Origin: Nemertoderma westbladi
Lineage: Eukaryota; Animalia; Xenacoelomorpha
Direction: 5' to 3'
Assembly (NCBI GenBank): GCA_032718475.1
Contig: JAUCBJ010002711.1
Location: 1 to 64,000, forward strand
DNA length: 64,000 bases
The notes under the pieces were generated by a model. That model saw only the letters and a program-made list of their open reading frames with translations, was not told the origin of the DNA and did no database searches. The stretch's first letter is position 1, and every line of letters begins with the position of its first letter. The translations under genes were made by a program, and so were the position numbers. Below, piece after piece: positions 5,348 to 63,738 of the stretch.

Positions 5348-5483
5348 AGCGGAGTTAGAGTGAAGTTTAGTCGTCCAAATTTTGGACTGAGGGGGGTGGG
5401 ATTGAGGGCGAGACGCCCTTCCCACACAAATAAAAATAAAATAAAATAAAAATAATAGTACATAGTAGGCAGAAATTAGCTAA

Positions 5484-16934: not shown

Positions 16935-16974
16935 ATAATGGATATTGCTTCTTTATTGCAGTAAGCAATAAAGT

Positions 16975-28793: not shown

Positions 28794-28843
28794 TGTTAGC
28801 TTATCCAATTCCGCTAACATGAACCCACAAAGTAAGCCGTTAA
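28794..28843 (+). repeat. First 50 bp of the 5' LTR of family-A element D
   Basis: TGTTAGCTTATCCAATTCCGC...GTAAGCCGTTAA aligns to the start of LTR 10060. The alignment resumes at 60062. Confidence 0.85.
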
Positions 28844-29169
28844 CCCTATTAAACCCGGGGGGGGGGGTCAATATGACCCCTCCCGTGGTTTTTTTTATTA
28901 TAATTCTGAAACTAACGCAGTTGGGAATCTGAAATTTTATGACTTTTCCTAAAAATATAATGTCTTCCTAGTAGTGAAAACCGTTTTCAAAAATATTGGG
29001 TACTTTTCGAGTTATAGCACCATTTTTTAACCCTACTTTTGGCACTTTTTTTGAGACGTTTTTTGAAAATTACATTTCATTAAATATTAATTGTAACATC
29101 TCTATTTTTGATTTACACCGGTTTTTTGGTGTTAGAAATTTGATGGAATTCATATAAATTGATTTAGAA

Positions 29170-32436: not shown

Positions 32437-32890
32437 ATAACGGATATTGCTTCTTTATTGCAGTAAGCAATAAAGTTGAAAGTACCTGTTGACCGGTAAA
32501 CCTGAACCGGTACTTCTGTAGGTCAGTAGGCCCAACTGCCAGAACCGGTACTGCTGTAGGTCCGTAGGTCCAACTGCCAGAACCGGTACTTCTGTAGGTC
32601 CGTAGGCCCAACTGTCCTAACCGGTACTTCCAGTATAAGTACATTAGTATTATTCGATTTGATTATTGTATACTGTAGGCTGCCAGGGGAATAGGGATTG
32701 ATCACCCCTCATTCTTTTGTATAGTTTACTTATTTCTGCCAGTTTTATTTACTAGTAGGTTGATATTGAGCAGAAGGCGTGTAACCCTGCTCAGATTGTA
32801 CAGATAATTTGTAGGCTTGACTGTTGGCTAACTGTTGATTAGGTCTGAACGGATTACAGTGCATGTAGAGTGTATGTCCGATAAAGAACG

Positions 32891-34476
32891 TGTTCGCGGT
32901 ATTTCAACTTTCCATAACGCGAGTTGAATATTTTTGTATTTTATTAAAATTGATTATTCCGATATTACTACTGGGTGCGGGACCATGGGTTTTGGGCACA
33001 TTCAATAAACTGGGGGCGATTTATGGGCGAACGTTGGGGCAACTTACAGGGTACGGGAATAATTTCATAGTTATAAGGGCCAGGGGGGATGGAAAATGCA
33101 AGCAGTATTCAGGTTAGCCTGAGTACTATTAGGCCCTGGCCAACTTCCTGCTGCCTGTAGGGGTGGATTTGGTAATGCGCCAGGCCTAAAGGACAAGGAC
33201 TGCCCTTAGCGGTCCCTGGCCAACGGCAGCTACTACGAGACTGAAAAGAACTCGGAACGCTGACTGCTTGTGTCAGGGATTTGCGACGGGCACCGACGGC
33301 CCCTTAGTAGCCAAGCCGTTCTGGTTCTCGATGATCGAACCCCGGGGTTCATGAGGGGTGGAGCGGACACGCGAACAGGTGGCCAACTTAAGACTGCCCC
33401 CTGACCTAAGCCGTACTGGTTCTTGATGACCGATCCCTTCGGGGTTCGTGAGGGGTGGGACGGACATGCGAAAGGGCTGGCCACAGGACTGGTTTGACAA
33501 GGACTGCCCTTAGCGGTCTCGGGTCAACTGCAGCTACTACGAGCCTGAAAAGAACTCGGAACGCTGACTGCTTGACTGGGATTTGCGACGGGAACCGACG
33601 ACAGACCCCTTAGCCAAGCCGTTCTGGTTCTCGATGATCGCTCCCTTCGGGGTTTGTGAGGGGTGGAACGGACACGCGATGGGGTCGAAAGACAAAGGAC
33701 TAGACTCGACTAGACTCTACTGGCCTACCGACCGTTCGGAGCAGTTTCTCGGCTGCCGAAGCGACTACGAGCCTGAAACGGACTCGGAAAGCCTAGGTGG
33801 TTGGGTTTCTGTAATGAACTGACGGACCCCTAGCCAAGCCGTTCTGGTTCTCGATGATCGAACCCTTCGGGGTTCGTGAGGGGTGGAACGGACACGCGAA
33901 CGGGTCCACCGACACGATAGACTCTTAGCCAAGCCGTACTGGTTCTCGATGACCGAACCCTTCGGGGTTCGAGAGGGGTGGTACGGATACGCGACAGAGT
34001 CTACCGACTGGACCGACCCTTAGCCAAGCCGGGCTGGTTCTCGATGATCGTTCCCTTCGGGGTTCGTGAGGGGTGGAACGGACACACGACAGGGTCGACC
34101 GACACCGACACTACGGCACTAAGACTGGGACTGAGGGAAAATCTGGGGAACATTAGGTAGGCTAAAATTCTGAGCGAACAGTGGGTTATTAAATAATATA
34201 CCGTAGGGATTTATATTATCGTGTATAATTATTGTGAATATTTGGTGTATATTGATTTGGGGAAGCCCAAAATTATTCTTAATCAGGTTTTCAACTATAG
34301 GAAGTTACATTAAAGAGTATATCCAACTAATGCAGCTTTTCTCAACCGCAAACTTGCATCTTAGAAATATTCCCTCCCCACAATCAATATCCGGTGACTG
34401 GCCGGGGCTCGGTGGTCTGTTAAGTCACGTCTCCAGCATCGGCGTTTTTCCCCCTGGTGTAGGAATAACGGCAACA
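32891..34476 (+). repeat. 5' LTR of element E with internal hairpin repeats
   Basis: TGTTCGCGG...GGCAACA. Only scattered substitutions versus the 3' LTR. Confidence 0.97.
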
Positions 34477-34727
34477 AAATTAAGAATAATTAATGCGGTT
34501 AATTTTGACACGGTGTCAAAATTAAGGATAATTACGGTCAACTTCAACTGGTGGAAGTTGAGAATCCTTCAATACTCTTCAAAAACTCTCTACGTGCTTG
34601 CCAGCACCCACTATGAGGAAACTCTGGTATTTGAGTTGAGACAAAGTCGTGGTTTAATTAAACAACAAACTCGATCTAACCAACTCGTAGTCGGCAGATC
34701 ACAATTCGGGAGAGTTGTTAACAGGGA

Positions 34728-34919
34728 ATGGAAGTATCGATCACACCCATTGATATAATTCAAGTTGAGCCAGGAATCTGGCACGTCGAAGTTGAGGTAC
34801 AAGGAACGAACGTTGGACGATTCAGGATTACTGTTCGGGTGGTCCAAGCTGAGTACAATACCTACGAAGAACTGTTTTACGACATCGCGTATCTCGCCAT
34901 CGACGAGGCGTTACAATGA
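34728..34919 (+). CDS. Putative 63-aa upstream ORF overlapping the gag start (ATGA)
   Basis: ATG start, protein-like composition, and its TGA (34917-34919) overlaps the gag ATG (34916). Confidence 0.45.
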   Translation: MEVSITPIDIIQVEPGIWHVEVEVQGTNVGRFRITVRVVQAEYNTYEELFYDIAYLAIDEALQ

Positions 34920-37900
34920 CCACAAATAACGTATCCGATACCGACGAGATGGATCACCACACAGACTCGGAAGCCGACGAGGTACCAAACGTCAAGAACA
35001 TGACCCGTCGGTTAGGGGCTCTTAAAGGCGGAGTAACCCGAGCGTATCAACGGATGGAGAAACAACTCAAGGGAGTTAAAACCCCCCTCAATGAGGTACA
35101 AACTCAGCTTCAAAGTATCCGAAATATCCTACAGCGGTACGAAAGAATGATACAGGCGTACCAAGAGCTCGTTCCCCCCACCGATCTGGAAAACTACCCC
35201 AAGTTGGAAGAACACGTTGTACATCTAGATGGGTTCCGCAAACAACACCGGAGGACCCTCAGCCTTGTGAGAGGCTATGAGGAACAGTATTACAAGAGGG
35301 CCGAAAGAACAGACGCGGAATCGGTACGATCCTCCAGCATCAGGACAGCAGTACATCGAAAGAGAACGGGGTCCGTTAGAGATCAGCACTCCAGCGCTAG
35401 GAGCGAAATATCCGGCTCAGCGCGCAGTTCTCAAGGGGCGCCGCCACTCCGAGACCAACTGCGAGAACGGAAGGCATTAGCCCTCAAAGCTCGGATGGAA
35501 GATGAGTATATTCAACTGCAAGCCGAGCAAGATGTATTAGCCGCCGAGACACAAAAGCGAGAGGCCGAACAAGCGGCCGAACGGCAGGCCGAACAACGCG
35601 AACAGGAGGCCGAACAACATAGACGAGAGGCCGAACGACAGGTCGAACAACGTAGACTAGAGGCCGAACGACAGGCCGAACAACGTAAACTAGAGGCCGA
35701 ACGACAGGCCGAACAACATAGACTAGAGGCCGAACGACAGGCCGAACAACGTAAACTAGAGGCCGAACGACAGGCCGAACAACATAGACTAGAGGCCGAA
35801 CGACAGGCCGAACAACGTAAACTAGAGGCCGAACGACAGGCCGAACAACATAGACTAGAGGCCGAACAACATAGACTAGAGGCCGAACAACGCAGACAGG
35901 AGGCCGAACAACGCGGACGAGAGGCCGAACGAGAGATCGAACAACGTAAATGGGAAGCGGAAATGCGTAAACAACACGCCGAGGCCCAAGCAATTCTCAT
36001 CCACAAAAAGAATGCGGATATTGCAAAACTCGCAGAATACGAAGCCGCACTTATAGAACGAGATATTCAACTCTACGAGGACTGGGAAAGGGATATAGAT
36101 CAGGAATATGAACCAATTCCGGTACCGGAGTTAGAAAAGTCATTTACACCGACAGCGGCGAAGCCTCCGAAACCCGAGATCCCGCCCACCAAACAGTCTA
36201 CGCTATCGGCACAAGCCCCGGTGTTCCATCCCCCACCGGCTACGTTAAAGAATGAGGAACCCTATTTCCCATCCAACACCACGACAGCGAGTGTACCCAA
36301 GTACGAGCCTGAAAAGGACTCGGAACGGGACGCCACTCCCCGATCAAACAACCCATTTACATCAACACCACAAACTCGCAGCCGCGTCATTATCAAAACT
36401 CCGCCTATCATTGATCCATCAAGTATGGGAGTGAGTGCCAATAACTATAACCCTCCGAGTCACTCCAGTTCAGACGACGTCAGCATCATCCGGGCGTTGG
36501 AGAACCGCCTTGCCATGCCGAAGATGGAGATTCGCACCTTCGAAGGAGATCCCGTCGATTACCTCAGATTCAAGAAACGGTTCTTCGCGCAGATTGGATC
36601 AACGGACATAGCCGACGCACAGAAATTGGTATATTTATCGCAATACCTGGGTGACAAACCACGCAGAATTGTTGCATGTTTTGAAGGAGGTTCTCATGAG
36701 GCATACTATGATGCATGGAAAACTCTGGATAAAAGATACGGAAATACCGGAACTATAATTAATAAAACTCTAGAGAGACTGATACAGGACGCGGGATCAC
36801 TAGGAGACCCACAGAACATACAGGAATTCTCCGACTCTATGAAGGATGCCTACTATACTCTGAAACCCTTGAATAAGAAGGACCAGGTGAACAACATTCT
36901 AAACCTCCGACAGATCGCCCGGAAGTTCCCCGGATGGCTACAAAGTAAGTAGGCTTATAAATGTGTAGACCTCCGGCGCAGACATCCAGATCGAGATCCT
37001 AGCTTCCTTGAGATGTCGGCATTCCTGGACGATATCTCCGAAGCCATGAATGACTCGATGTTTTCCAAACAAAGTCTCGCAAAGTTGGACGGAATAGAGA
37101 GCAACTCCAGGGGTAAGATAACCCCTCCGAAACCGAGATTCCGCCCCCCACCGGTGAGTACGATGGCCATCACCATGGCTGAGGATTCCGACGACGAAGA
37201 CTACGAGGAACCGACATCCGCCGAGGAATGGGCATGTTATCTCGCGAATTGGGCACCCGAAAGGGAAGGCATCACAAATTCCCTACTCTGTCTCTTCTGT
37301 GGGGAGAAACATAAAGTGGAATTCTGCAGAAAGTTTCAGTTCGCCGACCTCGTCCCACGCTTCGAGGCGATAATGAAACACCGAGGATGCTTCCGGTGTC
37401 TTGGAACAGGTCACTACGTTCGGGATTGCGACCAAAGGTCGTGCTGTGCTGTCTGTAACGACCAACGCCATCACACGCTCCTCCACATCCCCGCGAACTT
37501 CGACTTTACTACCCTCCCCTTTCGGATCGAAGCCAGGCGAAGAGGAGAAACAAACCACGTCTTCAAAGGAACCCGGACAACCCAACGGAGAGAAACCAAC
37601 CCGTTTAAAATCTCCACCGATACACCACAAGTAACAAATATTTCGGCCACGATTAATCTTATAAATCGCCGTTACATGGTTTTCGCAAAGGTAATCCCAG
37701 TAAGGATCCAAGGAGTCGGTAAATCTTTGACGACACTCGCGTTCCTCGATAACGGGTCTGACGGAACCATCATCGACCGGGATTTTCTCGAGCAACTCGG
37801 ACTAGAATACGAGCCTTGTAAACGGCCCATACAAACCATCACCGATAACAGAGAGGTAGAGTCCGGGGAGGTGCAACTCCAGATGGAAGGAGTGATGAAG

Positions 37901-40900
37901 GGCTACGAAACGGCTAAGTTAACTATAAAGAACGCCTTGGTACACACAGACCTCCGGGTGCGGTTCCGACAATCAGCCGAGTACGCCCCCCTCATACAAT
38001 TGGACCGGGACGATGTAGACCTGAGGTGTCCGCAGCTGGACGTAAACCGTATCACCCTACTGATCGGACTTGATACACCGGAACTACACATCCCCACCGG
38101 AGATATCGCCCGATCTATAAACCAGGATGACGGATTTTATGCTGAACGAACAATAATGGGATGGACACTCTGCGGCATTAAGGAGGAAACTACGGACACC
38201 TATACCTACCTTCCCAAATGTCAGATTAAAGAGAATGTAACCTCCGTGGGTTATTGCTCGGCTTCGGATCTTGACGAGGATTTGTTTCTGGAATCCGAGA
38301 AAACTCAACGAGAGATGACGAAATATTTTAATTTGGAGACCCAGGAGTTCGCGGAAAAGGACGAAAACCCATCCGAAGAGGACCAATATTGTATGGACGT
38401 TCTCGACCAGGCCACGTTTAAAGACGGACATTGGTGTTCACCTATGTTATGGAAGGATCCAAACAAACCAATGGCAAACAACGCCAGCATGGCACTTAAA
38501 TGACTTAAAGGGATTCTACGCCGGCTGAATGACCAACCTGAAATAAAGGAGAAATATAATACCGTAATCCAAGGATATCTCGATGATGGATTAGCAGAAA
38601 TGGTACCACGGAATGAACTGCAAGGTGGTAAAAGAACATATTATCTCCCAACCCACTATGTAGTAGAAGCCCGCAAAGGTGGGAAAATCCGAGTGGTAAA
38701 TGATGCTGCCGCTATGTACCAGGGCGAATCCCTAAACAGTCAACTTTACACGGGACCCAACATATATAGCACACTCATCGGCGTATTGATCAGGTTCAGG
38801 GAAAACCGGGTAGCATTCACCTGTGACATCAAGGCCATGTTTCATCAGGTTCGTACGTTACCAAGAGACTCGGACTGTCTACGTATCCTATGGACGGATA
38901 AAACGCTTACTCAACAGGAGATTAGCCAACTCATGATACGGGACGTAGACGTAATGCGTATGGTCGTCAGGATCTTCGGTGCTAAGGACTCGCCGGTAGC
39001 ATGCAGTGACATGCTAAAGAGGACGGCAACTATGTGCGAAAACGAGTTCCCTCCAACCGTCATAGAAACCATTCGACGATGCTTCTACGTGGACGACGGA
39101 TGCGCCGGCGCGGATAACGTGGATGAGGCACATCGGCTAGCAATGGGGATGGTGGAATGTCTAAAGAAAGGAGGGTTTCCGCTCGTAAAGTTCAGATCCC
39201 ATGACAAAACACTTATGGAAAAGTTTCCGGAGGACATCCGGCTGGAAGATAACAAAATGTATTCGGAGGATGTGGAACATCGTGTACTTGGGATTGAATG
39301 GGACATAGAATCAGACGAATTCATCTTCAAGTATAAACCCCTACCCAAGCCTATGACAAAAAGGGGATGTTTGTCGATAAAAAGCGCCATCTTCGACCCA
39401 TTAAATTTCATATCTCCAGTAACCTTGGCCGGAATGAACCTGATTAAGGAAATGTGGATAGAAGGACTGGGATGGGACGAAGAGCTTCCCCCATACCTTA
39501 GCGTCAAATGGAGAAAATGGACGGAGCAGCTCGAACATCTACATCTTATGCGGATACCTAGACCGTTCTTCCTCGATAAACTGCCCACCGATATCTTCCA
39601 GCTCCACACCTTTTCGGATGCTTCAAATACCGGAATCGGCGTAGTAACCTTCTTACGGAGACTAAGTAGCGATGGAAACGGCGATACAAGCTTCTTATTC
39701 TCCAAAGCAAAGACAGTATCCGGGGAATTCGTAGCAACGATTCCGAGACTCGAGCTACAAGCTGCAGTTTGGGCAGTAAGACAGAATCGCATGGCCATGC
39801 GGAACCTACGGATCCCCATAGAATCTCAACACTTCTGGGTAGATTCGAGTATAGTTCTCTATTATCTCCACTCTCCATCACGGTGTCACACCACGTTTGT
39901 TGCAAACCGAGCCACGGAGATTAAACAGTGTACCGGCCGAGAACAGTGGCATCACGTGAACGGGAAGGAAAACCCAGCGGACTTATCAAGCCGAGGCGCC
40001 ACCCCAAAACAACTCGGTAAAAGTAAACTCTGGCTTACAGGCCCGGAATTCCTACGGCAGCCACAGTTGACATGGAGTACCCGATTCGACCCCGAACTCG
40101 ATAGTGGAAAATACTCCGAGGACGATAAAGAGATCCGTAAAATCCATCGAAGCAACGCGGTGGAAATTTATAGTTGCCTGACTGAGCCTGCAAAGGACTC
40201 GGGCAGGCACTATAACGTCGCGACGATCACTCAACTAGCGGCGTCTTTACATCAGTTGATCGAGCGAACTTCATCCATGAGACGGCTCGTCTATCACGTT
40301 ATAACCCTTCGCAACTTCCTACGGTGGAAAAACAACAAACCGATAGTTCAACGGAATATACAAGAACTCATTATTGCGGAGAAGTGTATTGTCAGATATG
40401 TCCAGAAAGAAAGTTTCCCCGATGAATGGGAACAACTTAGTGCGGGCAAAACGTTGAAACCGGACAGCCCAGTCTACCAACTGAGACCAATGATGGGAGA
40501 GGACGGACTGATCCGACTGAATACCCGGATGGCAAACGCCCCGGTCGAATATGAGGTTAAATACCCGGCGCTTCTGCCCGGAACGTCGACACTAGCTAAG
40601 CTATTAATTCTACAATGCCATGAGGACAACCACCACGCAGGACAGAATTGGATTATAGCTAATATAAGACAAAGATATTGGATCACCCACATCCAGCCAC
40701 TGATCCGGAAAGTGTTGAAACGTTGCTTCACCTGCAGACGTTACCTAGCGCCACCAATCGCCCAAAAGATGGCCGACTTACCGGCCACCCGTCTACAAGC
40801 GGATTCCCCACCATTCTACGTCACCGGAGTGGACTGTTTCGGACCGTTCACGGTTATTGAACGACGATCCAACATCAAATGCTGGGGAGCCATCTTCACC

Positions 40901-41791
40901 TGCCTGAGGTCTAGGGCAATTTACCTAGATATCGTGGTAAATCTGACACAACACGCATTCATCAACGCTCTGCGTCGGTTCGTGGCAAACAACGGGACAT
41001 GCCGCCACATGTATTCCGATAATGGTACAAACTTTGTGGGAGGAGAAAGGGAACTTAGAGAGGCGATCGAGGGATGGTTTACCGATAACACTGCATCCCA
41101 AGTCTGGAAGGAACACCAGATACAGTGGCACTTCCAGACCCCCTTAGCACCCCATACGAGCGGGGTATGGGAGAAACTAATCGACCTAGTGAAACGGTCC
41201 ATGCGCGTCGCTCTAGGCGATACCCGGGTAACCCATGACACCCTCCGCACAACATTTTGCGAGATCACGGCTACCCTGAACAACCGACCCATTGTTCCTA
41301 TCCGCGACGACCCCACAGACCTGGAACCCCTCACTCCTAACCACTTACTGGGGAGACCCAAAACCCACCTCCTCCCGGAAACCATGTTCCCGGATCCCAA
41401 CGAGATCGCGAAACATACAAACTGGAAAAAGGCCCAAGCATTGGCAGCGCATTGGTGGAGGATTTGGGCCCAGGAATATCTCATAACCCTCCGGACCAGG
41501 AGGAAATGGAACAACACCCACCGGAACGTTGCAGTTGGCGACATGGTACTAGTTAGAGAAGATCTCAAAGACCGCGTTCACTGGCCTGTGGCGCGGGTCG
41601 TGACCATACACCCAAGCAAAGACGGACTTGCGAGGACTGTGACGATACGAACGAAAGCGGGCCACTACCAACGCCCCATCCAGAAGCTGTGCCTTCTTGA
41701 AGGCAATGACAGTGGTGATTCTACAAGAGGTGATAAGTTCCCTACTACGGATCCTGCTGCAGACATCGGTGACAATGACAAATGCGTTTAA
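34916..41791 (+). pseudogene. Family-E Gag-Pol in one frame, with two in-frame stops (36950-36952, 38501-38503)
   Basis: The three track ORFs share a frame. Motifs FEGDP, three knuckles, FLDNGS, DIKAMF, FYVDDG, FSDAS, WVDS, GVDCFGP and YSDNGTNF. Confidence 0.93.
35555..35950 (+). repeat. Coding tandem repeat, mostly 33-nt units (EAERQAEQ[H/R][R/K]L), predicted coiled coil in Gag
   Basis: Repeated GAGGCCGAACGACAGGCCGAACAAC. Confidence 0.92.
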
Positions 41792-42069
41792 ACCCTTCTC
41801 ATCATGTTGACAAACTCTTTATAAACTGTGATTTATCGACAATGAGTTATGGACCCCCCTTTAAACCAACTGTAACCACGCAATGGTATTTGTGTTTCCT
41901 CGTGTGTTATGTGGAGTCCAGCATCACCCTGCAGATGTTTCGGCTGACGCAGGGTCGTTTATGCATTGTTTACCCTGATTTTGGTCATCAGGACCTACGA
42001 TATTGGATTATTGGAAATGGAAGAGATTTGAAGTGGAATTCATTGTATTCATTGCAGTATGTTATGTTG

Positions 42070-42490
42070 TCCGTTGCGTGCGCAGTTCGGGGCGTAGGCG
42101 GTGTAACGAGTCCAGCTGTAGATCCCGGATTGCCGCGCAACACCCCCTCTATCCCGTTATTCTGGTGGGTCCATGGTGCATCCACGTGACTTCGACGATA
42201 GAGGGTTTTATGTTCTCAGTCGCGTTATTCTGGTGGGACCGTTGCGTGGATTTTGGGGCGTAGGCGGTGTAACGAGTCCAGCTGTAGATCCCAGAATGTT
42301 GCGTAACCCCATCCCACATGACTTCGTCGACTGAGCTTTATGTTGTTGGGAGAGTTATTCTGGTGGGTCCCTGGTGCACCCACGTGACTTCACTCCCAGC
42401 GTCTTCATTGTCCGTTACGTGCGCAGTTTGGGGCGTAGGCGGTGTAACGAGTCCAGCTGTAGATCCCAGATTGCCGCGTAACACCCCTTC
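42070..42490 (+). repeat. Three diverged units of about 170 bp between pol and ORF3 of element E
   Basis: GGGGCGTAGGCGGTGTAACGAGTCCAGCTGTAGATCCC near 42089, 42255 and 42430. GTTATTCTGGTGGG near 42157, 42224 and 42354. Confidence 0.88.
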
Positions 42491-43036
42491 CACGACAAAG
42501 ATTAAACAAAGAAAATGATTCAATATAGTTGGAAATGATGAAAAGGATCAGACAACTCTGCTATAAACCTGAATGATGACGCGTATACTGATGAAAATGA
42601 AATGATGCGCACCCTGGTGCTGCGCTTATAACAATGATGATAGCCGGGGGGCTATAAACCCAATGATGATGTGGAAATAAATAAATGTGAAATAAATGGT
42701 GGAAATAAATGTGTTGAAATATATGTGGAAATAAATGAAATGAGATGAAATAATAATGAAATGAAAAAAGACAAAAAAAAGGTATAAAAAAGGTCAAAGA
42801 AAAGAATTGGAAAAAAAAGGACAAAAAAGTCATAAAAAACTGGTTGGATATTATGTATAGCTATAGTAACTGTAAATGCTGAATGTATTAGCAATAAGAT
42901 GATAGATGCCTATATAGCAATGTTATTTAATAAACTGAATTCAATAAAAAACTGAATTATTCTGCTATCGCTATAGTTTCAGACTTTCTGGACTTATAAT
43001 TAACTGATCTAATTTGTAACGGATATAATCGTAAAT

Positions 43037-45637: not shown

Positions 45638-45794
45638 TGGATTGGGATATTCCAGGAACATTTATCGAACATTTATTTTTATACAAACTCTAGGCCAAAT
45701 TAATTAAAAACTATGCAATATTAAATTTGGGATTTTTTATATTGGGAATGACCTACGCAAACTCAATCGACCGACAGACTTCACGAAGGTCATT

Positions 45795-45803
45795 GGGGGG
45801 GAC
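45795..45803 (+). other. Polypurine tract of element E
   Basis: GGGGGGGAC lies directly before the 3' LTR TGT. Confidence 0.85.
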
Positions 45804-49189: not shown

Positions 49190-52100
49190 ATGTCTGACTC
49201 ACAACAAACACTGTCTGATAGTCTCATAGAAAGTGTTAGAATGACTGTTAGACAGTGCCTTAACGCCACTTCTTCTCAAGAAGAAAGCGAAGGGACAGCG
49301 GAGGGGCCGCAAAAGAGAGATGCCATTGACATCTATCTGTCAGACTATCAACGTTTTTTAGGTGATGACAAGTTGAGGAGAAGGTTAGATGGACTTAGCC
49401 CTAATAGTGAAGGAACCAAGCTTGTGCTGGACGCAATCGATGCGGAAATGTTAGCGGCGAACCAGGCTAAATTCGATGAACAACTCCGCATCGCTAGAGA
49501 CCAAGAAGAACAAGTAAGGAAAAAACGTATAGAAGACAGAAAGATAGCAGCAGTGGCAGAGGCAGAAAGAAAAGCGGCAGCAGCAGAAGCAGAGGCAGAA
49601 AGAAAAGCGGCAGCAGCAGAAGCAGAGGCAAAGGCAAAAGCGGCAGCAGCAGAAGCAGCGGCAGAGGCAAAAGCGGCAGCGGCAGAGGCAAAAGCGGCAG
49701 CGGTGGCGGAAGCAGAACGGAGAGCGGCTGAAGAGATCGCCCAACTGGAGTTGGAAAATCTTCAAGAGAAGCAAGACGACTTCAGTAAACAGTTAACAGC
49801 TAGTAATATGCAGATGATGAATCGATCTACTCCCAAAAGACAGGGTTATACATCATCTGAGGAAGGCGATACCACCGATACTGAAGGCAAAGGAAATCGA
49901 TCTCGCCTAAGCAGACGCAAAAGAACATCCCACCGTCAAAAATTGCCTGATTTGCCTCCAGCTGTTAGAAGGCAACTAAATAACACCAACTTAGGTAGTA
50001 CAGAACCCACAGACCAAATAATTACAATAGAGAGACTCCCTACTATAGTAGATGAGCCCGAAATAGTTAGGTCTGTTCCCGAAGCCACCCTTTCGGTCGT
50101 AGAGACACCTGTACTCCCTGAACCTACCTCTCAATTCCCTTTGCACAGCACTAAGCTACCTGTGCCCAGCAGAACAGTCCGTGAGACAGTTCATGCCCTG
50201 GACTCCGAGCGAAATATCCATGATTTGTCGCCCGTTGTCCCTCGTCCGCCCGCTACAACGTTGGCGAATCCCGCTTCGGCGGTTGAATGGGTGGATGAGA
50301 GACGACGGGGGATGGATCTCCTGCTCGGACAGATGCAGGAGACCGTTCAGCAATTCAAGGGCACAGTAAGGGAAAGTAGGCTAGAGTTGCAAGAAGTGCA
50401 GCAAAGTATCGCGCTAGAACGCGATAAATTAGTAAATACACAAAGGGGTATACCACCACCCCCTGTAACAATGTGTCAACCTGTTAGGTCTGAAGTATCA
50501 CATGCACAAGGTGTGGAGCCTACACGCATCTATACTGCTAGCGAAGTAGAAACTCCTATAGTGAACCCTATTAAGGGTAGTTATAGACCTGTTGATAATG
50601 ATATTCCCTATAGACCGGATCATAATCCGAGAAATTTATATACCGATAACTCGATATTAAATAACACGATGGCCCAAGAAAGTTTTACGCGTCAAATGGC
50701 TAGAACCGAAGCCCGGCAAGCGGTAAAGGTGGGAGAGATCGTCAAGTTCAATGGAGATGAGATGAAATGGTTACCTTTTAATGAATATTACAAAGATAAC
50801 ATACAGAACTCTGTGCTATCTAATGGAGAGAAACTTAGATTCCTCATCGAGTGCTTGGAAGGATCTCCCAAGTTAATGGCGTTAAAGTTTATTGGACATC
50901 CAGACGGATTAAGACAAGTTTGGGATACACTAAACATCAGGTATGGTAATAGGACTAACATAGCTAGGTATTTATATGCGAAATTAATGGCGCCCCGAAA
51001 GTTTCTTAGCAGCGGGATTATAGAGTTTTCCGATGAGATTCAGGAGATCTGTAGACAACTAGATTGGTTAGGTAAGTCTCATGAATACCAGAATTCTATG
51101 GTTGTAGGAGCCTTAGCATCTACTTTGCCCAAGGGTGGAGTAGGTACACGCTGGGACAAGAAGGTGTTATATATGATGGAACAACAACAACGAGACCCTA
51201 CCATGGCTGATCTCATGTCATTCTTGGATAGTGAGGTGAAATTACAGCTCATAAAGCAGTCCAGAGAGAAGACAGCGGAAAGTAATGTAAGTAAGAAACC
51301 CGTTTCTAGGAGAAGGGTAACACCAGTATGTTATACCGACGACGGTGAAAGCCAAACCTCTCAAGGAGAGGACAGCGGGAAAGACACTGACAGGTCTTAT
51401 TATGTCAATAAAATGCCTAAAGATCAGGTAAGTAAATCCAAGTCTCGACCCAATGACAGAAGGGAACCGGTACAAAAAACCCCTCCTACGTCTCCTAAAA
51501 GAACTCAGGTGAGAAAGCCCGAGGAAAGAACAAGTGTGCACCACATAGCACAGGTTAAAGTAAGTAACATCAAGCCGAAATGTGTGCTGTGCGACGGGCC
51601 CCACCGTTTAAATGCGTGTGATAAATTCCTGAGGAAGTCACTAAAGGATAGACGTGAAGTCATGTGGGATAAGCGGTTGTGTTATAATTGCCTCAGACGA
51701 GGACACCAACGGCGAACCTGTTACTCCGATGCAAGGTGTGCAAAGTGCGGCGCAAAACATCATATCTTGTTGCACACGGAATTCGAACGAAACAGCCCGA
51801 GTCAGGTAAGTGAGTCCGAACTACATGTCCAATTCAGTGATGTGAACGACACTGATCAATCTGAGATGGAAGGATTCTATACGGACGAGTTCTCCGACGA
51901 AAACGAATCCTGTTACTTAATAAACACCACCGCAGTGTATCGAGCACTCATGTATGAGAAAGACACAGACAGAGACCTCACCCTAACTACTTCAGATCAA
52001 CAACCATCTTGGAAAGCGCCAACTTCCAATATAGGAATCCGAGAATTTCCTGTAGTCCAGTTACGGGTCCACGGACCTCAGAAGAGCTATATAGTGAACG

Positions 52101-52705
52101 CCCTCCTGGACTCCGGTAGCACAGGAACATTCATCGATAAAGAACTAGCCGAAGTCATCTTTGCTGGACAACCCAAGTTCCGAACCAAGCTAAACATGTC
52201 AGGGATCATGCAGGTTTGGAATTCTACTGTAGCTGCCGACTATTATATAGGTGAGTTGTCCACTCCACAGGATAAACTAGGAGAATACAGTATAAGGTCA
52301 GTAAAAATGGTGGCAATAAAGAACTTCGCTACCACCCAAGTGAAACCTTATAATTGGGACGAAGATGATCATGTCCAACAACTTAACATCCCTAGATTCG
52401 ACACCGATTATCCTGGAGTACAAATATTAATCGGTCAAAACGCGCATGAGGCGCTGGAGACATTAGAGAAACGACCTACTCAACCGCAACCACTTCAGAC
52501 CTATGCGGTAAGAACTAGAGTAGGTTGGTACCTTACTGGACCTTCCCGTAGAACGCTCAGGGAAAGACTGCTTCAAGATCGCGTCTGCCAGGTGAGTGAA
52601 TGGGAAGACGATACTAGTGAGGAAGACGACCCAACTGAGGGAACACCATACTCCTCAGATAATGACGATATTAGCTCCAATGTAGATCAATGGAGAGATG
52701 CCTAA
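49190..52705 (+). CDS. Family-B Gag-protease of element C (1171 aa open frame)
   Basis: Ala/Glu/Lys repeat region, KFNGD, three BEL knuckles and LLDSGS. Terminates at the 52699 insertion. Confidence 0.9.
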   Translation: MSDSQQTLSDSLIESVRMTVRQCLNATSSQEESEGTAEGPQKRDAIDIYLSDYQRFLGDDKLRRRLDGLSPNSEGTKLVLDAIDAEMLAANQAKFDEQLRIARDQEEQVRKKRIEDRKIAAVAEAERKAAAAEAEAERKAAAAEAEAKAKAAAAEAAAEAKAAAAEAKAAAVAEAERRAAEEIAQLELENLQEKQDDFSKQLTASNMQMMNRSTPKRQGYTSSEEGDTTDTEGKGNRSRLSRRKRTSHRQKLPDLPPAVRRQLNNTNLGSTEPTDQIITIERLPTIVDEPEIVRSVPEATLSVVETPVLPEPTSQFPLHSTKLPVPSRTVRETVHALDSERNIHDLSPVVPRPPATTLANPASAVEWVDERRRGMDLLLGQMQETVQQFKGTVRESRLELQEVQQSIALERDKLVNTQRGIPPPPVTMCQPVRSEVSHAQGVEPTRIYTASEVETPIVNPIKGSYRPVDNDIPYRPDHNPRNLYTDNSILNNTMAQESFTRQMARTEARQAVKVGEIVKFNGDEMKWLPFNEYYKDNIQNSVLSNGEKLRFLIECLEGSPKLMALKFIGHPDGLRQVWDTLNIRYGNRTNIARYLYAKLMAPRKFLSSGIIEFSDEIQEICRQLDWLGKSHEYQNSMVVGALASTLPKGGVGTRWDKKVLYMMEQQQRDPTMADLMSFLDSEVKLQLIKQSREKTAESNVSKKPVSRRRVTPVCYTDDGESQTSQGEDSGKDTDRSYYVNKMPKDQVSKSKSRPNDRREPVQKTPPTSPKRTQVRKPEERTSVHHIAQVKVSNIKPKCVLCDGPHRLNACDKFLRKSLKDRREVMWDKRLCYNCLRRGHQRRTCYSDARCAKCGAKHHILLHTEFERNSPSQVSESELHVQFSDVNDTDQSEMEGFYTDEFSDENESCYLINTTAVYRALMYEKDTDRDLTLTTSDQQPSWKAPTSNIGIREFPVVQLRVHGPQKSYIVNALLDSGSTGTFIDKELAEVIFAGQPKFRTKLNMSGIMQVWNSTVAADYYIGELSTPQDKLGEYSIRSVKMVAIKNFATTQVKPYNWDEDDHVQQLNIPRFDTDYPGVQILIGQNAHEALETLEKRPTQPQPLQTYAVRTRVGWYLTGPSRRTLRERLLQDRVCQVSEWEDDTSEEDDPTEGTPYSSDNDDISSNVDQWRDA

Positions 52706-53975
52706 GGAGGTGAGGTCTCTATAGGGGTGTCTCCAACAGGCGGCGGCGGACTCGTGAGGGTCTGGGGGCACGTTAAATTGATCTATAGTGCAAGGGAGTT
52801 ACTGAAGGCCCTCGTGTCTAGCGAACCATGAATTGACATGGTGCCGTGGTACCGTCTAGTCGGCCTGTTGCCGTACTGCCAGTCCTGTACACAGTAGGGG
52901 TGGTGGCTTAGTGTGATCTGTGGTTTATGTGGTCTATGTGGTAGGTCTATGTTTGGTATGTATGAGTTGACTAGACTCTTTACTGTCTCCGATCGGTTGC
53001 CAAAACGTGTCTTTTCCCAGGGTAGCACTATTGGAATGGAGGTGTTGCATCGGAATGGACAGGTTCCTGATGATTCTGTTGGTACTACTATTGGAATGGA
53101 GGTGGCACCCGGAATATCGGCTGCAAGGAGGGGTTGGTGTTGTAGTGTGGTCCGAGTGAATGATACTCTGGAATCTGTGGTTTGTATGTGTACGTGGTAT
53201 ACGTGAGTGTATGTATGGCCACTGCGAGTGGGTATGGGAACCCTTACCGGTTGGTTCAGTCGCCGCTGGTTATTAGTAGGACCATATTTTACTGCGCCCC
53301 AGCATACTTTGTGCACACAAAGTTATTTTACCCTGTCGGTAAAATAAAGTACTCTCGACTTTTTATTAGTCGATACAATTTTGTCCCCTCTGATTTTGTC
53401 ATCGATTTTGTCTTCCCCGATTATGTCCTCTGTGTGTGCGTGGTATGCGTCAGAATTTGTGTTTACCGTAGTGTACTTGATATTGTGAACATCTATTGAG
53501 TACACGTGTACAGTGACTGGTAAGTGGTTACTTGTTCCTAGCTTTCGAGCTAGTCAGTATTGTTTGCGGAACCGACTTCCCCTCAATACTGCCGGCGAGG
53601 CGGGTGAAAACGGTCAATATTCCATGTGGGTAGCGCAAGCCCGCTTGGGACAAGACCGTCGGTTTGGCTCAAGGGCGACCTTGATGCTCGATCGCTATCG
53701 ACTGGTCCACCCGCCGGTTGACTCTCTGAGTTGGCTCAATGTACAGTCAGGCCACAGTAAGTTGACAGTAGGCGAATGCCATTCTATTCGGCTACACACG
53801 ACGAGCTGTGCCGGTGTGATCGGGGGATTGAAAAGTGAACCCGGGAAGCATCGGGCTACCCTCCGGCCCAGTCTGATAAAAACGGAGTCGGACTGGCCCC
53901 AAGGGTGGTGGGACAGCGTCCGCCTCATGGGTGCGCCTCGGAGTCATCAGAGAGGAGCCCAGAAGGACGCAAGCG
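52699..53975. other. Insertion of about 1.28 kb of unknown origin in element C
   Basis: Absent at the equivalent point of B1 (about 23090) and bounded by TGCC microhomology. Confidence 0.75.
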
Positions 53976-54596
53976 TGCCCCAAGAAGTTTAATCCAACTG
54001 ACATCGCTTCCAGAGGAGCAACTCCTCAAGAACTGACAGATACTACAGACCGGTTAGGTGAACCCGACTTCCTGAGTAAGGAGGATGAATGGCCTCCCCA
54101 TCTTACTCCGACTGAGATTAGATCAGCCAAGGGAGCGGAGAAAGTAAAACCTAAAACCCTGACGGGTGGATCGGAGTTATTTGAGCCCGGGATAGATTTG
54201 TCGGTATTACATATTGCCAGGGACGACGCCGTGGATCTGGACCTCCCCACCGCGAGTGGATCCTTCATGAAGATCAGAGGGAGCGATTGGAACTCTGGAA
54301 CATCAGACGTCTCGCAGGGACTCTTACCTCTCCTGCGGGGAGCGACGGGCCACTATAGCTCCTGGAATCGGCTTTGTAACGCCGTCATATACTTTGAGCG
54401 ATGTTTCTATCGTCACTATTCCAGGACGAAGAGGAAACCTGGAATTATATTCGAGATGCAGCGACTCAATCACCCAGTCGGTCGTTTGTGTTTACCGGAA
54501 GGGAATGGAGGACTCTCCGGAAACTGTGGAAGGCAAGATTCTCTTCCCACGACCACCTCCCTAATCCTTCAAACATCTAGGGACTCCATAACGTAA
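53976..54596 (+). pseudogene. RNase H/tether remnant of family B
   Basis: NPTDIASRGATPQEL...HYSSWNRLC, matching 23090-23712 and minus-strand 11878-12915. Confidence 0.85.
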
Positions 54597-57500
54597 CAAC
54601 ATATGGAGTGGGTGTGTGACTCTATTATTTTATATTATTTTATTATTTTTATATTTCTGTATGTATTACTATGTAATTTTATTATAATCGTTTTATTTAA
54701 TTTTATTTAGTAGAATATTATTTAGCGATTATTTAGTAGAATAGTGCAATATATTCGTGTTTATTGCGTACGTAATTACTTATAATATATTTAGTGCGAC
54801 GGCGAAGAAATAATTATTTTTTCTCTTTCCTTACTGTCCGTATTATATTATAAATACGTAACTACAGTAAGATGAAATGTCCGTACTTATTAAAGTACAA
54901 TAAAGCCACTACTATATTTAAGTATTATTGGTAGGCAGAGTATTAGGAATGCAAAGTTCAGATCCTCGTGTCTCGGCTAAACCAAGCTCTGGGTAGACCT
55001 TGGAAACGACTTGCCTCTTCACACTGACATTGCTTCGTGCGATATTGCTCTCATACCGTATATTAAATAATACATATAGTAGCATGATGTCCCTTTAACA
55101 GTAGCGTATAACGCAAAATAAATCTGTTAAACCCTTCGACCATCTGTAATTCTAGTCGATTAAGATATCGCGGCACCCACCGATATACTTGAAAGACAAA
55201 TTCTAGAATCAGTGGTTAACGTCCCCAGACAAGTTCTGGAATAAACCGGTGCCCATCTCAAATATTAATTATTTAATATTTGCAAATCTAATAAATCAAA
55301 TCTGTAAAATTCAGATCCTTCAACAATTCTAGTCGATTAAGATATCGTAGCATTTACCGATATTCTTAAAAAGACAATTTTTATAGAATTAAGGATCTTG
55401 TGTCCCCAGACATGTTCTAGAATCAAAATATGTCAATTTAATTATCAAATAATAAAATTTCAGGGAGTAAATTTAAATTCATGCCTTTTAATGAATTTAA
55501 TAAATTGCCATTTTTACGCAATTTATAACATTCCCAAAATTCCATTAATTAATAGATCAAGGGAGCGGAGATTTATCTTATTATGCGTATGAGTGTGCGA
55601 AAGTCTCCCAAACATAGTCAATAGCCGATAAAATTCATAAAGCCATGTATAAAACAGGACATTGACCATTAAAGAATTACTATTAAATAACATCCCAGAT
55701 CTGTATGCATTGGAATTACCCTAATTCTACCGCTAGCTTTGCATAATGTCACCATAGCAACAACCACGCTAGAATTAGAATTGAGTTAAAAGAACAATAG
55801 AAAGCTTGTCCCATTGAATAGCATAGGGAATAAATAGTGCACTGATAGTATCCAAGGATACATAATAATACAGTGACATTTTGGAAGGCATTGACTAACG
55901 GACAAGTGACCCGAGTGTGTGTAATTTGTGACAAGTTGTGTGTGTGGTATTTGTGAGTTTATAGGCGAATGTTACTACTAAGGTGTGTTTACAGTAGCGA
56001 GTCGCAATTGTGAAAGTAACCCTAACTCTCCAGTAAGAACCTGAGGTGTATCTAAGCCTTTGGGACGGACAGTCGAGTGACTTGTACCGGTTGTCGTTGT
56101 CGTTGTGCGGCTACGTCGTTGGCGAAAGTACAGCGGCGACGACACATCGGCGCTGAGGATCTCGCACTGTCCGGGGGCTGATTGGGGTAGGCAGCGACGC
56201 TCGCTAGCCTAAATATAAACTCATTATAATATGAATAAACTCATATATAGCAGATATGACGGAGTTGATAGAAGATGGTCTTGGTATCAGGGAGCGATAT
56301 ACTCTACTTTCAAGCGTTTGTTGATAGCTTGATACGCGGTGATACTAGTCCAACTACTACGAAGGATGATGGTCGTTATATCGAACCTACGATTTCCTGG
56401 AAGTAACTTACGCGTGAATTGGACTATGGAAAATTCACCGCTCGCTACACGCATTGTAATGGTATGTATATGGACTTCTTAACCATTGGCCATTCTATCG
56501 ATTTACACGATACGGACTATGTCGAACATATCCTACCCAGAGGAGTCGAAACGATAAACCAAAATTCTAATGCGAAAATCCTATTCGAAATCGACTCGAA
56601 AGAAAAGACATTAAAGAAACAAATAAACGCGGTAACTCCAACATATATTTGGAATTCTTGATAGAAGCATTGTAACAACAAATAAATATCATCCGCGTTT
56701 CCCCTACCAGACGTGCGTCTTTGGTATTATTACGATAAATGCCCTAGACCCAGCCAATAAACGGAAAGACATAAACATTCACGGAAACGTTGTGTTAAAC
56801 ACAGTTGTGCTCGTTATATTTACTGGAGTTTCGAGCGAAACTTGTTTGACGTATCACTTATGCTCACTCGGCTCGAACGATCCTGGAGTAAACCTACGAT
56901 CAGAGTCCCGGAATACTCGGTCAAACCTCCTCATTCCTTAGTTGGACCTCAGACCTGCGATCCTGGTGGTGTCGCGGATCCTCGCGGACTGTATTCACTG
57001 TTCAAAGATCTAGTGCTACCCTAACAATTAATCGGTAACACTCCGACAGTGATTTCTAGCTAGCCGCCCATCTTACCTAGCCGGATTGTGACGCGGACAC
57101 CTAATATCACTATCCAACCGTATGGTCGTTCCCGTTTAACGCGATACAACCCTTCATCAAAGTGAAAGAGAGCATTGTACAAAACGAGTTAAACGCTATT
57201 CTATAAAGATCAAAAAAGAAATCTGCGTTTGTTCAGATAAACGTAAGTTATAACAGTAAGTCCAATCGATAAACGAATTGGCCTTATCTCAGTTCGATTG
57301 AGAAATCTCGAATCTCTAAGAAGATATCAAGCTTAGAAAACCCTATTCTCTGCGAGAGTTTTGGACGAACGTATCCCATGACAAGCGGAGGAAAATCAGC
57401 TCGAGGAGAAGCATATCGAAATGGACGAGACTCCGACCGTAAACCCAAACCTTCTAATGCAATTGTATTGCACCCTTTACCCAGGAGTTATAGCCTTTCT

Positions 57501-57662
57501 AGTAAAGTGGCTCGCCCCAAAGAGAAAAGGACTCTTGCTGGCCTCGGGAAACTGCGTGAACGCCGTCCGCGCAAGAAAAACTAACTGTTTAGAGTATCTT
57601 TATATTTTAGAAACTGTGATTTGTTATATTTTATAGACTTAAATCCCATTTTCTGGGAGCGG

Positions 57663-58891
57663 TGTAAAAGCTTTTGCGTAATTAGCCGGTTATTATCCCC
57701 GTAAAGTACTCTGTGGTTGGTTTACCAGGCATAAAAAGGCCGTGTCCTTGCTGTACTCGTGTTTTGGAGGACATAAAAGCCATTTCTTCTGTATTTGTAC
57801 TTTAGAGGACATAATCTGAAATTTCGTGACGTAAAAGCTCGATACTCTTGAAAACAGTGTCGCTACCATGACGACGGCTAACGGCTGATATTGCCACGTT
57901 GCACCATAGCCCTGCTTTCTGTATCTGCCAATAGGATTTGAGTTGGTTTTGATTTTGACCTATCACAGATCTACTGAACTGAATTTCCTATCTGTATGCT
58001 CATTCTCTGTGGTGGGTGGAAGCCTTTGTAAATAAGGTTATTCTTATCAGTTTTTCAGTGTTGTTGGTGATTCTAAGCCAGGAAGAACGGCTTTAGAGTA
58101 TTTTGTGCTTTTCTGCTTTAGCCTTACACTAGTAGGCTTAATTATAAGGACATATATCCGTTATCTGATTGTCTTAACTCAAAACAAACTGGTTAATTGG
58201 CCCATACTGTGCAACTTAACTTAACATTACTGCTTTGCTGTCGGTTATTCATTATATTTGTGGATGAATTATTATATTTGGAATAACGAGAAATAACCCC
58301 GAAACCCAATATTCTTGATATACCGAAGGTAAGAGAGAAAGGTTACAGATAAACGATTGTGACTTATGTTAAAGTGGTTTGAAGTGAATCTAATGTTATT
58401 TGATAGACCCTACATGAGTCGGTCTGTGTTCCTTTTATATGTGACTAAAATCAGTGAAGATCGGCAGATCAGTGTGCAGTATTGTGCGGTATTGTGTATG
58501 AGTGAGACTGATAACGAAGCATTTCCTAAAGAATGCGCCATATATGTGAATTGTAACTAAGCCATATCGTTGTGAGTAGTTTAAGTCATAACTCTGTTTA
58601 TATAGATAGAGCGCCACGTCCTAAAGGAACTGTTAATATTCCCCGAAGGTGAATAATATTGTCAGAGATTATATAATACTGTCAGTCGAATAATACATTA
58701 GGCTTACATAGCAATAAGATTAAGCTGTCGAAATCAATCTCCCGGGTATATCCAACGGGTGAATGATCGCGCATAGATTGGTTTCAACTAGTGTAGTGAA
58801 TCAAATACTTGTTAGAGGCTAAAGCGATTTATTATCTAGAAGACATCCTAATTTGGCGGGTTAAACTGCCAAAGGTCTGAAAGCGCGAACA
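57663..58891 (+). repeat. 3' LTR of element C (1229 bp)
   Basis: Preceded by GGGAGCGG (weak PPT) and followed by TSD TTCTC. Confidence 0.95.
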
Positions 58892-60061
58892 TTCTCTGTG
58901 TATAAATTAAAAATTTCACTATTTTTTGGTAAAGTATGGGACTTTACATGCATAAACCCAAAGATTTCTTGACTGAGGAATGATTCTCAGTTCAAATATA
59001 GACTCATATTCTTACGACCGACTATGACCTTAGAGTATTATATCACTCATGGTTTCACATATTACATTAATACAGTGCACTAATATAATCGCCATTTTGA
59101 TGGTAAAGTATGGGACAATTTTCAATTGGCCGCCATGATATTTCTGAGGGAGTGAAGATGAAACTAATTGTTTTATACGATGACGCAACACAAACGTGCT
59201 TTGCATTCCACTGGGTGATTAGTCTGAGTTACATCTCTGTGAATAAACTAAAAATTTCACTATTTTAGGTAAAGTATGGGACATCACAAGATTAACTTTA
59301 TAGATTTCATTACAGAGGAACGAAACACTGGTGAAATTAAATAAAACCAAAAAAATTCGAAAATGGATTTGTTTTTGATTTGGTACATGCTCAGAAATGT
59401 TAATTTATTGGTCATAGGAAGTGCCTACAGGAAACGAAACTTTTGCACACTTTTATTCACATTTTGTGCAGAGCAGGTGCATAATTTGTAATTCGACTAT
59501 TTTTGATAAACCACCTGTGTTGATACAATTTTTAGCACTGAATTCATGAAGTACGATAAATTTTGACCTAAAATAAGTATAAATTCAAAGCTACATCTCA
59601 TTTTTAAAAATTAGTGGGGAGGTTGACCTTTTCATGGAATGAGCCATAAGTGAATTAAAAATTTTGTGTTCTAACTGAAAAGTGCTGGTTACTTGTTTTT
59701 TTCATTTTTTTTCCTACGCAGAGAGGACTAAACAGCTATTTATAGTAATCATATCATTTTTTAATATTTTGCAATGTATTTTGCACCCCAGAAAACCTGT
59801 ATTGAAAAATAATTAGCCGAAAATGTAACTTTCAAATTTTGTGAAAATTGTGCACTACTTGTAATTTTGGTGCTGCAATATAACCACCCCAGTACATTTT
59901 TTCGAAATTTTTTTTTATCGGTCGGATCCAGACAAGTGATATCTACGCACAAACAAAAAATCAGCCGTTTTCGTAAATATTTGTAGATTTTAGACGGGGG
60001 GGGGTCAATATGACCCCCTCCCGGTATTTGTACAACATTTTATAGCCCGGTACTAATAGGG

Positions 60062-60571
60062 TTAAGCAATATTGAGAGCACGAGGTTGATTACCAATCAA
60101 CCTCGTGTCATCCCAGTAAACGGGGACAATAGGCCCCAAAGGAGACACACACAATAAGGGTCAGGGGCCAAACCCCTAACAGAGAGAGAACAGCAAGGGC
60201 GAAGGGAAGCACTTCAGAGGGGGGCAAAGGGTGACAAGTAGGATACCAGCCAATGGGGGGACAGCATCGACTAGGTACAGTAATATGGCCAACTGTGCAG
60301 TATATATTACCTGTTGGTGCTTCCCTATTCAGTTAGTTTACTCAGTTAGTCCAGTAGGGTGGAACGGTGACTTCTATCACCGTCCACGTCCGCTACCGCC
60401 ATCATACTTATCTCCCGGTAACCGTGCCATACTATACTATAGCCTATATATCAACTATATTATACCTTATACATATAACCGAACATCAGAACTCTTTTAC
60501 CTTTCACACACGGCGGGGACGCGTAGATAGAAAACCCAACGGATAAACCGGGATCCGTAGATCCCGTCACA
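60062..60571 (+). repeat. Remainder of the 5' LTR of family-A element D
   Basis: Aligns to about 10107-10597 (AAGCAATATTG, GGGTCAGGGGCCAAACCCCTAAC, CACGGCGGGGACGCGT, GATCCCGTCACA). Confidence 0.88.
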
Positions 60572-60652
60572 GTGATAGAATCAGATCCACCCAGCTGCCC
60601 TGACAGTGATAGAACTAGATCCAGCCAACTGCCCTGACAGACAGAAGACAAG

Positions 60653-63529: not shown

Positions 63530-63563
63530 CATGATTATCCTTATTGCTACTTATTACTTATTG

Positions 63564-63738
63564 CCTTATTGCTACTCAATCGATGCCTTTCCCCCCCCCC
63601 CCTGATTGGTTGATACCCTTGTTGGCACCCTTTGGAGTGATCCCGTTCACTCCACCTGTTCTCTCTGGGTTAGGGGTTTGGCCCCTGACCCTTGTTGTGT
63701 GGTTCTCCTTCCCATTCTCATTGGGATGGCACGAGTTG
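63564..63738 (-). repeat. Inverted fragment of a family-A LTR
   Basis: Reverse complement of about 10143-10313. Confidence 0.85.

Follow-up and report, generated by a model that had tools for sequence, protein, structure and literature searches.

Primer sites complementary to their own long terminal repeats point to probable self-priming in BEL/Pao retrotransposons of Nemertoderma westbladi

A 64-kb stretch of DNA from the xenacoelomorph Nemertoderma westbladi (contig JAUCBJ010002711.1 of assembly GCA_032718475.1, positions 1 to 64,000; hereafter the window) is a nest of BEL/Pao retrotransposons, three families of which, designated E, B and A/D, carry at the inner edge of the 5' long terminal repeat (LTR) a short site complementary to a segment within the LTR itself. 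The reading we favour, with a probability of roughly 0.6, is self-priming in cis, i.e. that a 5' piece of the element's own RNA, released by cleavage where the helix ends, primes minus-strand synthesis. The initial annotation of the window had already proposed self-priming, and the proposal stands as the best interpretation, now backed by a compensatory change between the subfamilies A and D and by BEL relatives from elsewhere. Two arguments originally attached to it do not stand: the "correct polarity" of the segments adds no weight, because every inverted repeat with its upstream arm in the LTR will show it, and the implied Tf1-like placement of the segment at the very 5' end of the RNA disagrees with promoter motifs in A and D, discussed further below.

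The LTR ends were set independently of the complementarity, by paired LTRs and target duplications in E and in the B copy B2, and by the match to the A LTR in D. The pairing partners are the following.

34271-34283, forward strand: candidate primer segment of E, ending in AT and followed by C; 193 nucleotides (nt) from the LTR end
34479-34491, forward strand: primer-binding site of E, 2 nt behind the LTR; perfect 13-nt complement of the segment
34521-34533, forward strand: second copy of the E primer site, likewise after CA plus 2 nt; its single change pairs as G:U
31742-31752, forward strand: candidate primer segment of B, ending in AT and followed by C; 684 nt from the LTR end
32437-32447, forward strand: primer-binding site of B2, abutting the LTR; perfect 11-nt complement, with a further 7-bp helix possible
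60357-60380, forward strand: candidate primer end of D, comprising 60372-60380 (9 pairs), a bulged C at 60371, 60368-60370 (3 pairs) and a second helix at 60357-60363
60572-60614, forward strand: primer-binding region of D, with the site at 60572-60583, the partner of the second helix at 60586-60592 and a repeated site at 60606-60614

The D segment ends in AC, is followed by C, and also takes part in a local hairpin; the distance from segment end to LTR end is 193 nt in E and 191 nt in D. All eight strings named in the initial annotation lie where it had placed them and are reverse complements as it described, and the A/D duplex, which it gave as 9 nt or as 12 with a bulge, is present and in D runs past 12 nt. 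The chance test took the longest Watson-Crick run beginning 0-3 nt behind the LTR and set it against 2000 dinucleotide shuffles of the LTR, a check that the annotation had itself suggested and that came out in its favour. The run of 13 in E was reached by none of the shuffles (and at 0.04% of random window positions), the run of 11 in B2 by two (0.09%), and the run of 9 in D by eight (0.8%), or by 14 with the unbroken LTR piece only. Behind the three 3' LTRs, the longest runs were 6-7.

Both E and D repeat the primer site downstream, 42 and 34 nt away, respectively (34521-34533 and 60606-60614), with CA before each copy, and priming at these copies could give a longer LTR still ending in CA. 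The two E copies are separated by a perfect 12-bp hairpin (34493-34519), and a 9-bp hairpin stands just behind the B site (32452-32474).

The ICTV profile of the Belpaoviridae describes replication in this family as tRNA-primed, though poorly understood, with a primer site of 18 nt that fits the 3' end of tRNA-Arg or tRNA-Gly, a genome size of 4.2-10 kb and an LTR length of 0.2-1.2 kb (PMC8742986). Such an 18-nt site is absent from the window elements, E, B2, D and the diverged B copy B0 being judged by the TGG start, which none of them has at the primer site. The earlier statement that there is no TGG-type site holds for these four and fails for a further copy, B1, where one private change creates TGG at offset 4. 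ARAGORN found no tRNA genes in the window, and Rfam at gathering score returned no matches in it and no known ribozyme beside the segments. The two additional B copies are as follows.

15707-16945, forward strand: B1 LTR and primer site, with the segment at 16198-16208 and the site at 16935-16945, including one G:U pair
12973-13492, forward strand: B0, 84% identical to B1; 3' part of the LTR and primer site 13482-13492

The B0 site, itself a small inverted repeat, has two changes that would leave two mismatches against the B1/B2 segment; B0's own segment has been lost from the window.

Covariation between site and segment could be followed within the A/D family. The A segment (10424-10432) differs from that of D at 4 of 9 letters and stands in the same kind of hairpin context. 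A prediction for the A primer site was written down ahead of the test, in which public contigs were aligned to 10400-10625. In run X4 (4 contigs, agreement 0.95), the A-type LTR end is followed by the reverse complement of 10424-10432, and the exact predicted letters are found there also in run X2 (6 contigs, agreement 0.5); all four letter differences between A and D are compensated in the A-type site of these two runs. Each of the runs X1 (agreement 0.49) and X3 (agreement 0.57) has 11 contigs, which show 1 and 2 differences, respectively, that still allow G:U pairing, X1 and X2 being one sample. Over 10400-10444, none of the four runs has a listed variant, as against 30 further downstream. 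The earlier claim that the complementarity rather than the sequence is conserved is borne out by this compensated change, which is clean in X4, mixed in the other runs and unphased throughout.

The same arrangement recurs well outside the window. Scanning metagenome contigs with a 30-sequence pol alignment gave 552 confirmed loci, the best 80 of which were kept. Ten of those had an internal repeat boundary, and eight were retained as LTR ends (in L063 the end reads TA instead of CA, and the boundary of L005 is unsure); L015 and L046 were excluded, their repeats not being LTR ends. Seven of the eight loci have a self-complement of 10-15 nt, and none has a TGG start at the primer site. The match is contiguous in L048 (10 nt) and L063 (12 nt), and in L002 (12), L012 (15), L023 (12) and L035 (13) it exists only across an LTR intron of 72-139 nt, bounded by GTAAGT and pyrimidine-AG, with 0-1 of 60 shuffles reaching each match. 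In L025 (11 nt) it is contiguous in one LTR, from which the intron is precisely lost; the other LTR retains the 3' end of the intron, the donor of which is present in the sister locus L010 (L025:1-326, 6515-7103; L010:6725-6745); with L025, five of the seven loci match across a splice junction. This exact loss in L025 is DNA evidence of splicing and reverse transcription, although the contig, built from short reads, could be a chimera. Three apparent junction matches, in L028, L059 and L080, were artefacts of index wrap-around and were disregarded. When 61 loci were scanned blind, 17 came out at p <=0.05 where about 3 were expected; among the 17 are two near-duplicate pairs as well as two rows in doubt, and the needed part of the LTR is missing from many other contigs. 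TGG occurs within 5 nt of none of the 25 listed LTR ends, which were partly picked by the match. Within the sister pairs L048/L063, L011/L029 and L060/L061, the pairing is kept and the letters differ; the quick tree behind these pairs, which carries long-branch warnings for the window rows, was used only for sister pairs among the outside loci. All segments with good support have A-C at their end, or A-T in the case of E and B, mostly before C. Splice-junction primers were also considered for the window families and rejected: with at most 11 letters in E, 10 in B and 5 in D, the junction matches are shorter than the contiguous ones and use weak sites. Two scans of viral contigs gave no relatives.

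These data bear on two alternative explanations. A host tRNA fragment or small RNA might serve as the primer, the LTR match being secondary, and half-tRNA primers without TGG are indeed known in copia lineages according to the consulted part of PMC6317226. We consider this very improbable: the A and D LTRs are 78% alike and yet their sites differ at 4 of 9 letters, each matched in the LTR, and the sites of the relatives all differ, each fitting its own LTR. A fixed host RNA cannot track such changes. The other explanation, chance matches in A+T-rich sequence, draws on the shortness of every match and on D, which alone reaches only p ~0.004-0.007, but we count it as refuted given three independent families with unrelated letters, the agreement of the A-type site with its prediction, and the matches in seven of the eight loci from outside the window.

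The position of the segment within the RNA matters for how a primer could be made from it. Promoter motifs are discernible in the LTRs of D and A, and the E site has a competing partner.

60066-60571, forward strand: remainder of the D 5' LTR, with TATA at 60301, a TCAGT initiator at 60329 and a predicted start at about 60331
10060-10597, forward strand: A 3' LTR, with TATA at 10326, TCAGT at 10355 and the segment at 10424-10432
34218-34244, forward strand: imperfect upstream partner of the E primer site, which wins in folds begun upstream of about 34240

The spacing from TATA to the TCAGT initiator, 31 nt in A and 30 nt in D, is kept despite indels between the two LTRs. From these motifs, transcription is predicted to start near 10357 (A) and 60331 (D), which would put the segment at about +68..76 and +42..50 of the respective transcripts. 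With the segment some 40-75 nt inside the predicted A/D transcript, the 3' end of the primer would therefore have to arise inside the RNA. Folded from its predicted start, the D RNA shows the pairing with a probability of 0.86-0.89, along with further helices across the first ~50 nt. In E, the probability is 0.09-0.95 for starts at 34255 or 34271, varying with the end point and resulting partly from the second site at 34521.

Such folds could also mean that the pairing is a conserved RNA structure serving packaging, dimerisation or translation control, with priming achieved otherwise. The D pairing, which covers ~50 nt and competes with the hairpin in a switch-like manner, would suit this explanation, as would the duplicated sites of E and D and the alternative partner in E. 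We nevertheless find it rather unlikely, since in every case the helix starts within 0-5 nt of the LTR edge, exactly the place required for the end of a primer, and finishes with A-C or A-T, no second candidate for a primer site can be seen, and sites that reproduce exon junctions to the letter are explained most simply as copied from a spliced primer.

Self-priming in cis might proceed as follows. The starting point, a site of 9-13 letters at the edge of the 5' LTR that pairs with a segment of the element's own LTR beyond chance and changes in step with it, is shown by the sequences; the start sites, the cut, the enzyme and priming itself are inferred. If A/D transcripts begin 40-75 nt upstream of the segment, as the promoter motifs predict, the primer is expected to be a capped 5' piece of 50-76 nt, as against 11 nt; the predicted lengths are ~50 nt in D and 76 nt in A. 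The A/D segment may be held in its local hairpin, which in D the primer site and leader together would outcompete, as the folding suggests. Tf1 offers an analogy for the next step: cleavage 3' of the conserved A-C/A-T end, usually before C, would free a 3'-OH, at predicted positions 60380|60381 (D), 34283|34284 (E) and 31752|31753 (B). The cutter is probably the element's own RNase H; going by the title of a 1996 study by Levin, RNase H is said to be required in Tf1 self-priming. The reverse transcriptase would then copy 165-684 nt up to the cut, which, again as in Tf1, would become the working start of R. In retroviruses, plus-strand synthesis copies the primer into the primer site. If the same applied here, the primer site would be rewritten from the segment in every cycle, which would explain both the changing of several letters together and the sites matching exon-exon junctions.

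An alternative source of the primer would be the segment copy in the 3' LTR, reached by 3'-5' trimming from the 3' end of the RNA, possibly by an exonuclease-like third open reading frame (ORF), or else a short LTR transcript acting in trans. Both LTRs contain the segment, in an internal position, ATTAAA stands 25 nt downstream of the E segment, and both A and E have a third ORF with 3'-5' exonuclease-like features, including acidic motif-like residues recognized by eye. The ORF of E is the following.

43013-45637, forward strand: third ORF of E, 874 amino acids, with a likely 3'-5' exonuclease-like N-terminal part and a Cys/His-rich C-terminal part

It is 27% identical to the A ORF over 170 amino acids, and both contain DxE, D and YxxxE motifs, discerned by eye, and Cys/His knuckles. 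The exonuclease call is a lead: an atlas feature score of 0.91 to the PF01612 cluster suggests it, there is no match to a Pfam family, and a single-sequence fold is unusable, with a predicted local distance difference test (pLDDT) score of 30.8. The A part has no close relatives among 1.84 billion representatives, the one match being repetitive. Matches to the third ORF occur in 0 of the 80 related loci, several of which have no room for it and still show the pairing, and none was found in family B; the ORF is thus unneeded for the signature. DEDDy third ORFs are also known from other LTR elements, with no priming link stated in the available text of PMC5408684. Taken together, we regard priming from the 3' copy or in trans as possible but doubtful.

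Several observations weigh against self-priming in cis, or at least against its uniformity. B1 is weak evidence: the earlier claim that it retains the pairing through G:U is right as to 11 pairs including G:U, of which just 6 are Watson-Crick, and a lone C-to-T change in it produces the TGG mentioned above. The distance from segment to LTR end in B (684 nt) is an outlier, all the others falling within 86-203 nt. The homology between the A and D segments was placed by eye from the hairpin, the global alignment being gappy there, and in the unphased A test no single contig covers both segment and site, two of the four runs being low-agreement mixtures. Unlike in Tf1, the A/D segment lies away from the predicted 5' end of the RNA. 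The modelled pairing in E drops to 0-0.2 for RNAs starting at or before 34242, and in B it is 0 for starts at 31590-31700 and reaches 0.77 only from 31742; one B fold from 31630 seemed paired and was not reproduced by repeat folding. The modelling of whole regions backs D, E only partly and B mostly not. Among the eight outside loci with repeat-defined LTR ends, L005 has no self-complement.

The mechanism has a precedent in Tf1-type self-priming. In the excerpts available of PMC6317226, PMC4600332, PMC10085805 and PMC3601003, self-priming is described only for Tf1/sushi, Tcn1 and TAR copia elements. As far as the consulted text of PMC4600332 and PMC10085805 goes, the Tf1/sushi chromoviruses (Tf1 and Tf2 of Schizosaccharomyces pombe, Tj1, Tosmo1-3) resemble the window elements in having a site behind the 5' LTR that complements their own LTR RNA, a similar length of the core duplex, and the need for a cut. 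They differ in being Ty3/gypsy chromoviruses with a chromodomain integrase, whereas the window elements are BEL/Pao without a chromodomain match; in using the mRNA's 5' end as primer, whereas the A/D segment is predicted to lie 40-75 nt inside the transcript; and in the "pretzel" of three duplexes, which involves the LTR downstream of the primer, whereas the extra helices predicted in the window join the leader to RNA that lies upstream of the segment. Assembly of the segment by splicing, as in the BEL relatives, is a further difference from Tf1. For the TAR lineage of Ty1/copia (Houba, Osr-1) and for plant Tcn1, self-priming was predicted from the same kind of sequence evidence (PMC6317226, in the part available), but these are plant copia or gypsy elements, unlike the BEL/Pao elements of the window. 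Measured by the threshold given in the accessible text of that paper, at least 10 complementary letters within 0-5 nt of the LTR, E (13) and B2 (11) qualify and D (9 plus a bulge plus 3) falls just short. A search by title and abstract, with subscription papers, Repbase and GyDB entries and supplements outside its scope, found no paper on self-priming in BEL/Pao, and word searches of PMC554778, PMC3118150 and PMC6238403 gave no mention of a primer-binding site or tRNA.

The BEL/Pao identity of the elements is apparent from their architecture. Like canonical members of the group (Belpaoviridae, Semotivirus), they have DUF1759, an A17 region, the order protease, reverse transcriptase, RNase H, integrase (PR-RT-RH-IN) in Gag plus Pol, LTRs bounded by TG and CA, a purine tract and a 5-nt target duplication, and have proteins ~40% identical to ones from corals, fish, molluscs and echinoderms; they differ in having no tRNA site and, in the case of E, in a length of 14.5 kb with 1.6-kb LTRs. 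By their proteins the elements are BEL/Pao; they do not fit the tRNA-site description of the family, and they likely work as Tf1 does, outside its group. Their remaining features are listed below.

32891-34476, forward strand: E 5' LTR, TG to CA, 1586 nt; partner 45804-47389
45804-47389, forward strand: E 3' LTR, preceded by a purine tract; second segment copy at 47184-47196
34853-41791, forward strand: E gag-pol, a single frame with two in-frame stops
31251-32436, forward strand: B2 5' LTR; partner 57663-58891, target duplication TTCTC
57663-58891, forward strand: B2 3' LTR; segment copy at 58154-58164
28794-28844, forward strand: start of the D 5' LTR, interrupted at TTAA by a large insertion
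221-9353, forward strand: A internal region, with a broken BEL gag-pol (221-5338), a tandem array and a third ORF in two frames (6808-9353)

Element E (32891-47389; target duplication GAACG), the LTRs of which are identical at 1578 of 1586 positions (99.5%), is nested inside element B2 (31251-58891), which itself lies inside the insertion that splits the D 5' LTR. TG-to-CA LTR pairs, the purine tract and short target duplications were found in both E and B2. Pfam domains in the E gag-pol are DUF1759, zf-CCHC, aspartyl protease, Peptidase_A17, integrase H2C2 and DUF5641; DUF1759 was found also in B, and Peptidase_A17 in an inverted B-like pol with 79-82% DNA identity to the B pol remnants. The proteins nearest to those of E are ~40% identical, the species-named ones coming from corals, sea anemones, fish, bivalves and echinoderms. 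The pols of A, E and the inverted B-like copy are mutually only 31-34% identical (A to E, 34%), and these are therefore deep, separate families; in a quick tree with no outgroup and with long-branch warnings, the three form long branches outside the 92 other rows. The ORF of D itself has no Pfam match, and D is assigned to BEL through the likeness of its LTR to that of A, combined with the BEL pol of A: the D and A LTRs share 78.5% identity over aligned columns, and the D LTR end at 60571 agrees with the A 3' LTR end at 10597, the last 12 letters being common to both.

Other features of the window concern the history of these elements. The E LTR contains (33298-34110, 46211-47023) at least 5 repeats of 88-95 nt, most with a stem capped by C(UUCG)G and with no Rfam match, and in A a tandem array of ~25 copies of a 32-36 nt unit (5485-6321) lies between pol and the third ORF. 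The insertion at TTAA (28845-60065), which interrupts the D LTR and inside which B2 and E lie, has CCC..GGG ends and internal repeats of 162-163 nt, and we take it to be piggyBac-like. B1 (19594-25632) and B2 (49263-57406) share an identical large loss of reverse transcriptase and RNase H sequence; the LTRs of B2 are near-identical despite this loss, so a non-autonomous B subfamily has moved recently. An inverted B-like pol fragment adjoins the A LTR and the cut LTR of B0 (10546-12972), and an inverted A-type LTR fragment terminates the first ORF of D (63530-63738), both pointing to local rearrangements.

A third ORF is found elsewhere too. Juno and Vesta of bdelloid rotifers are Ty3/gypsy-like. 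Their pol is followed by a DEDDy third ORF that combines 3'-5' exonuclease-like features with Cys/His motifs (described in the available part of PMC5408684), and this ORF resembles that of A and E by description; they are rotifer lineages outside BEL/Pao, and the exonuclease call in our elements is a lead.

The loci outside the window invite a broader generalization, to which we would give even odds: that a large and mostly aquatic part of BEL/Pao normally primes itself independently of tRNA, employing a long capped 5' piece cut at a conserved AY|C end within the transcript, with the segment spliced in some families and intron-less and hairpin-switched in those of the window. If true, many animal BEL/Pao elements would escape dependence on host tRNA and with it the control exerted by tRNA fragments, and LTR finders demanding a tRNA site would undercount such elements. 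That would make BEL/Pao the third self-priming superfamily, along a different route from Tf1, and would overturn the textbook description of the group. The idea that hairpin priming preceded tRNA priming in LTR elements, proposed in the part of PMC3601003 available to us, would gain a third superfamily as a test case.

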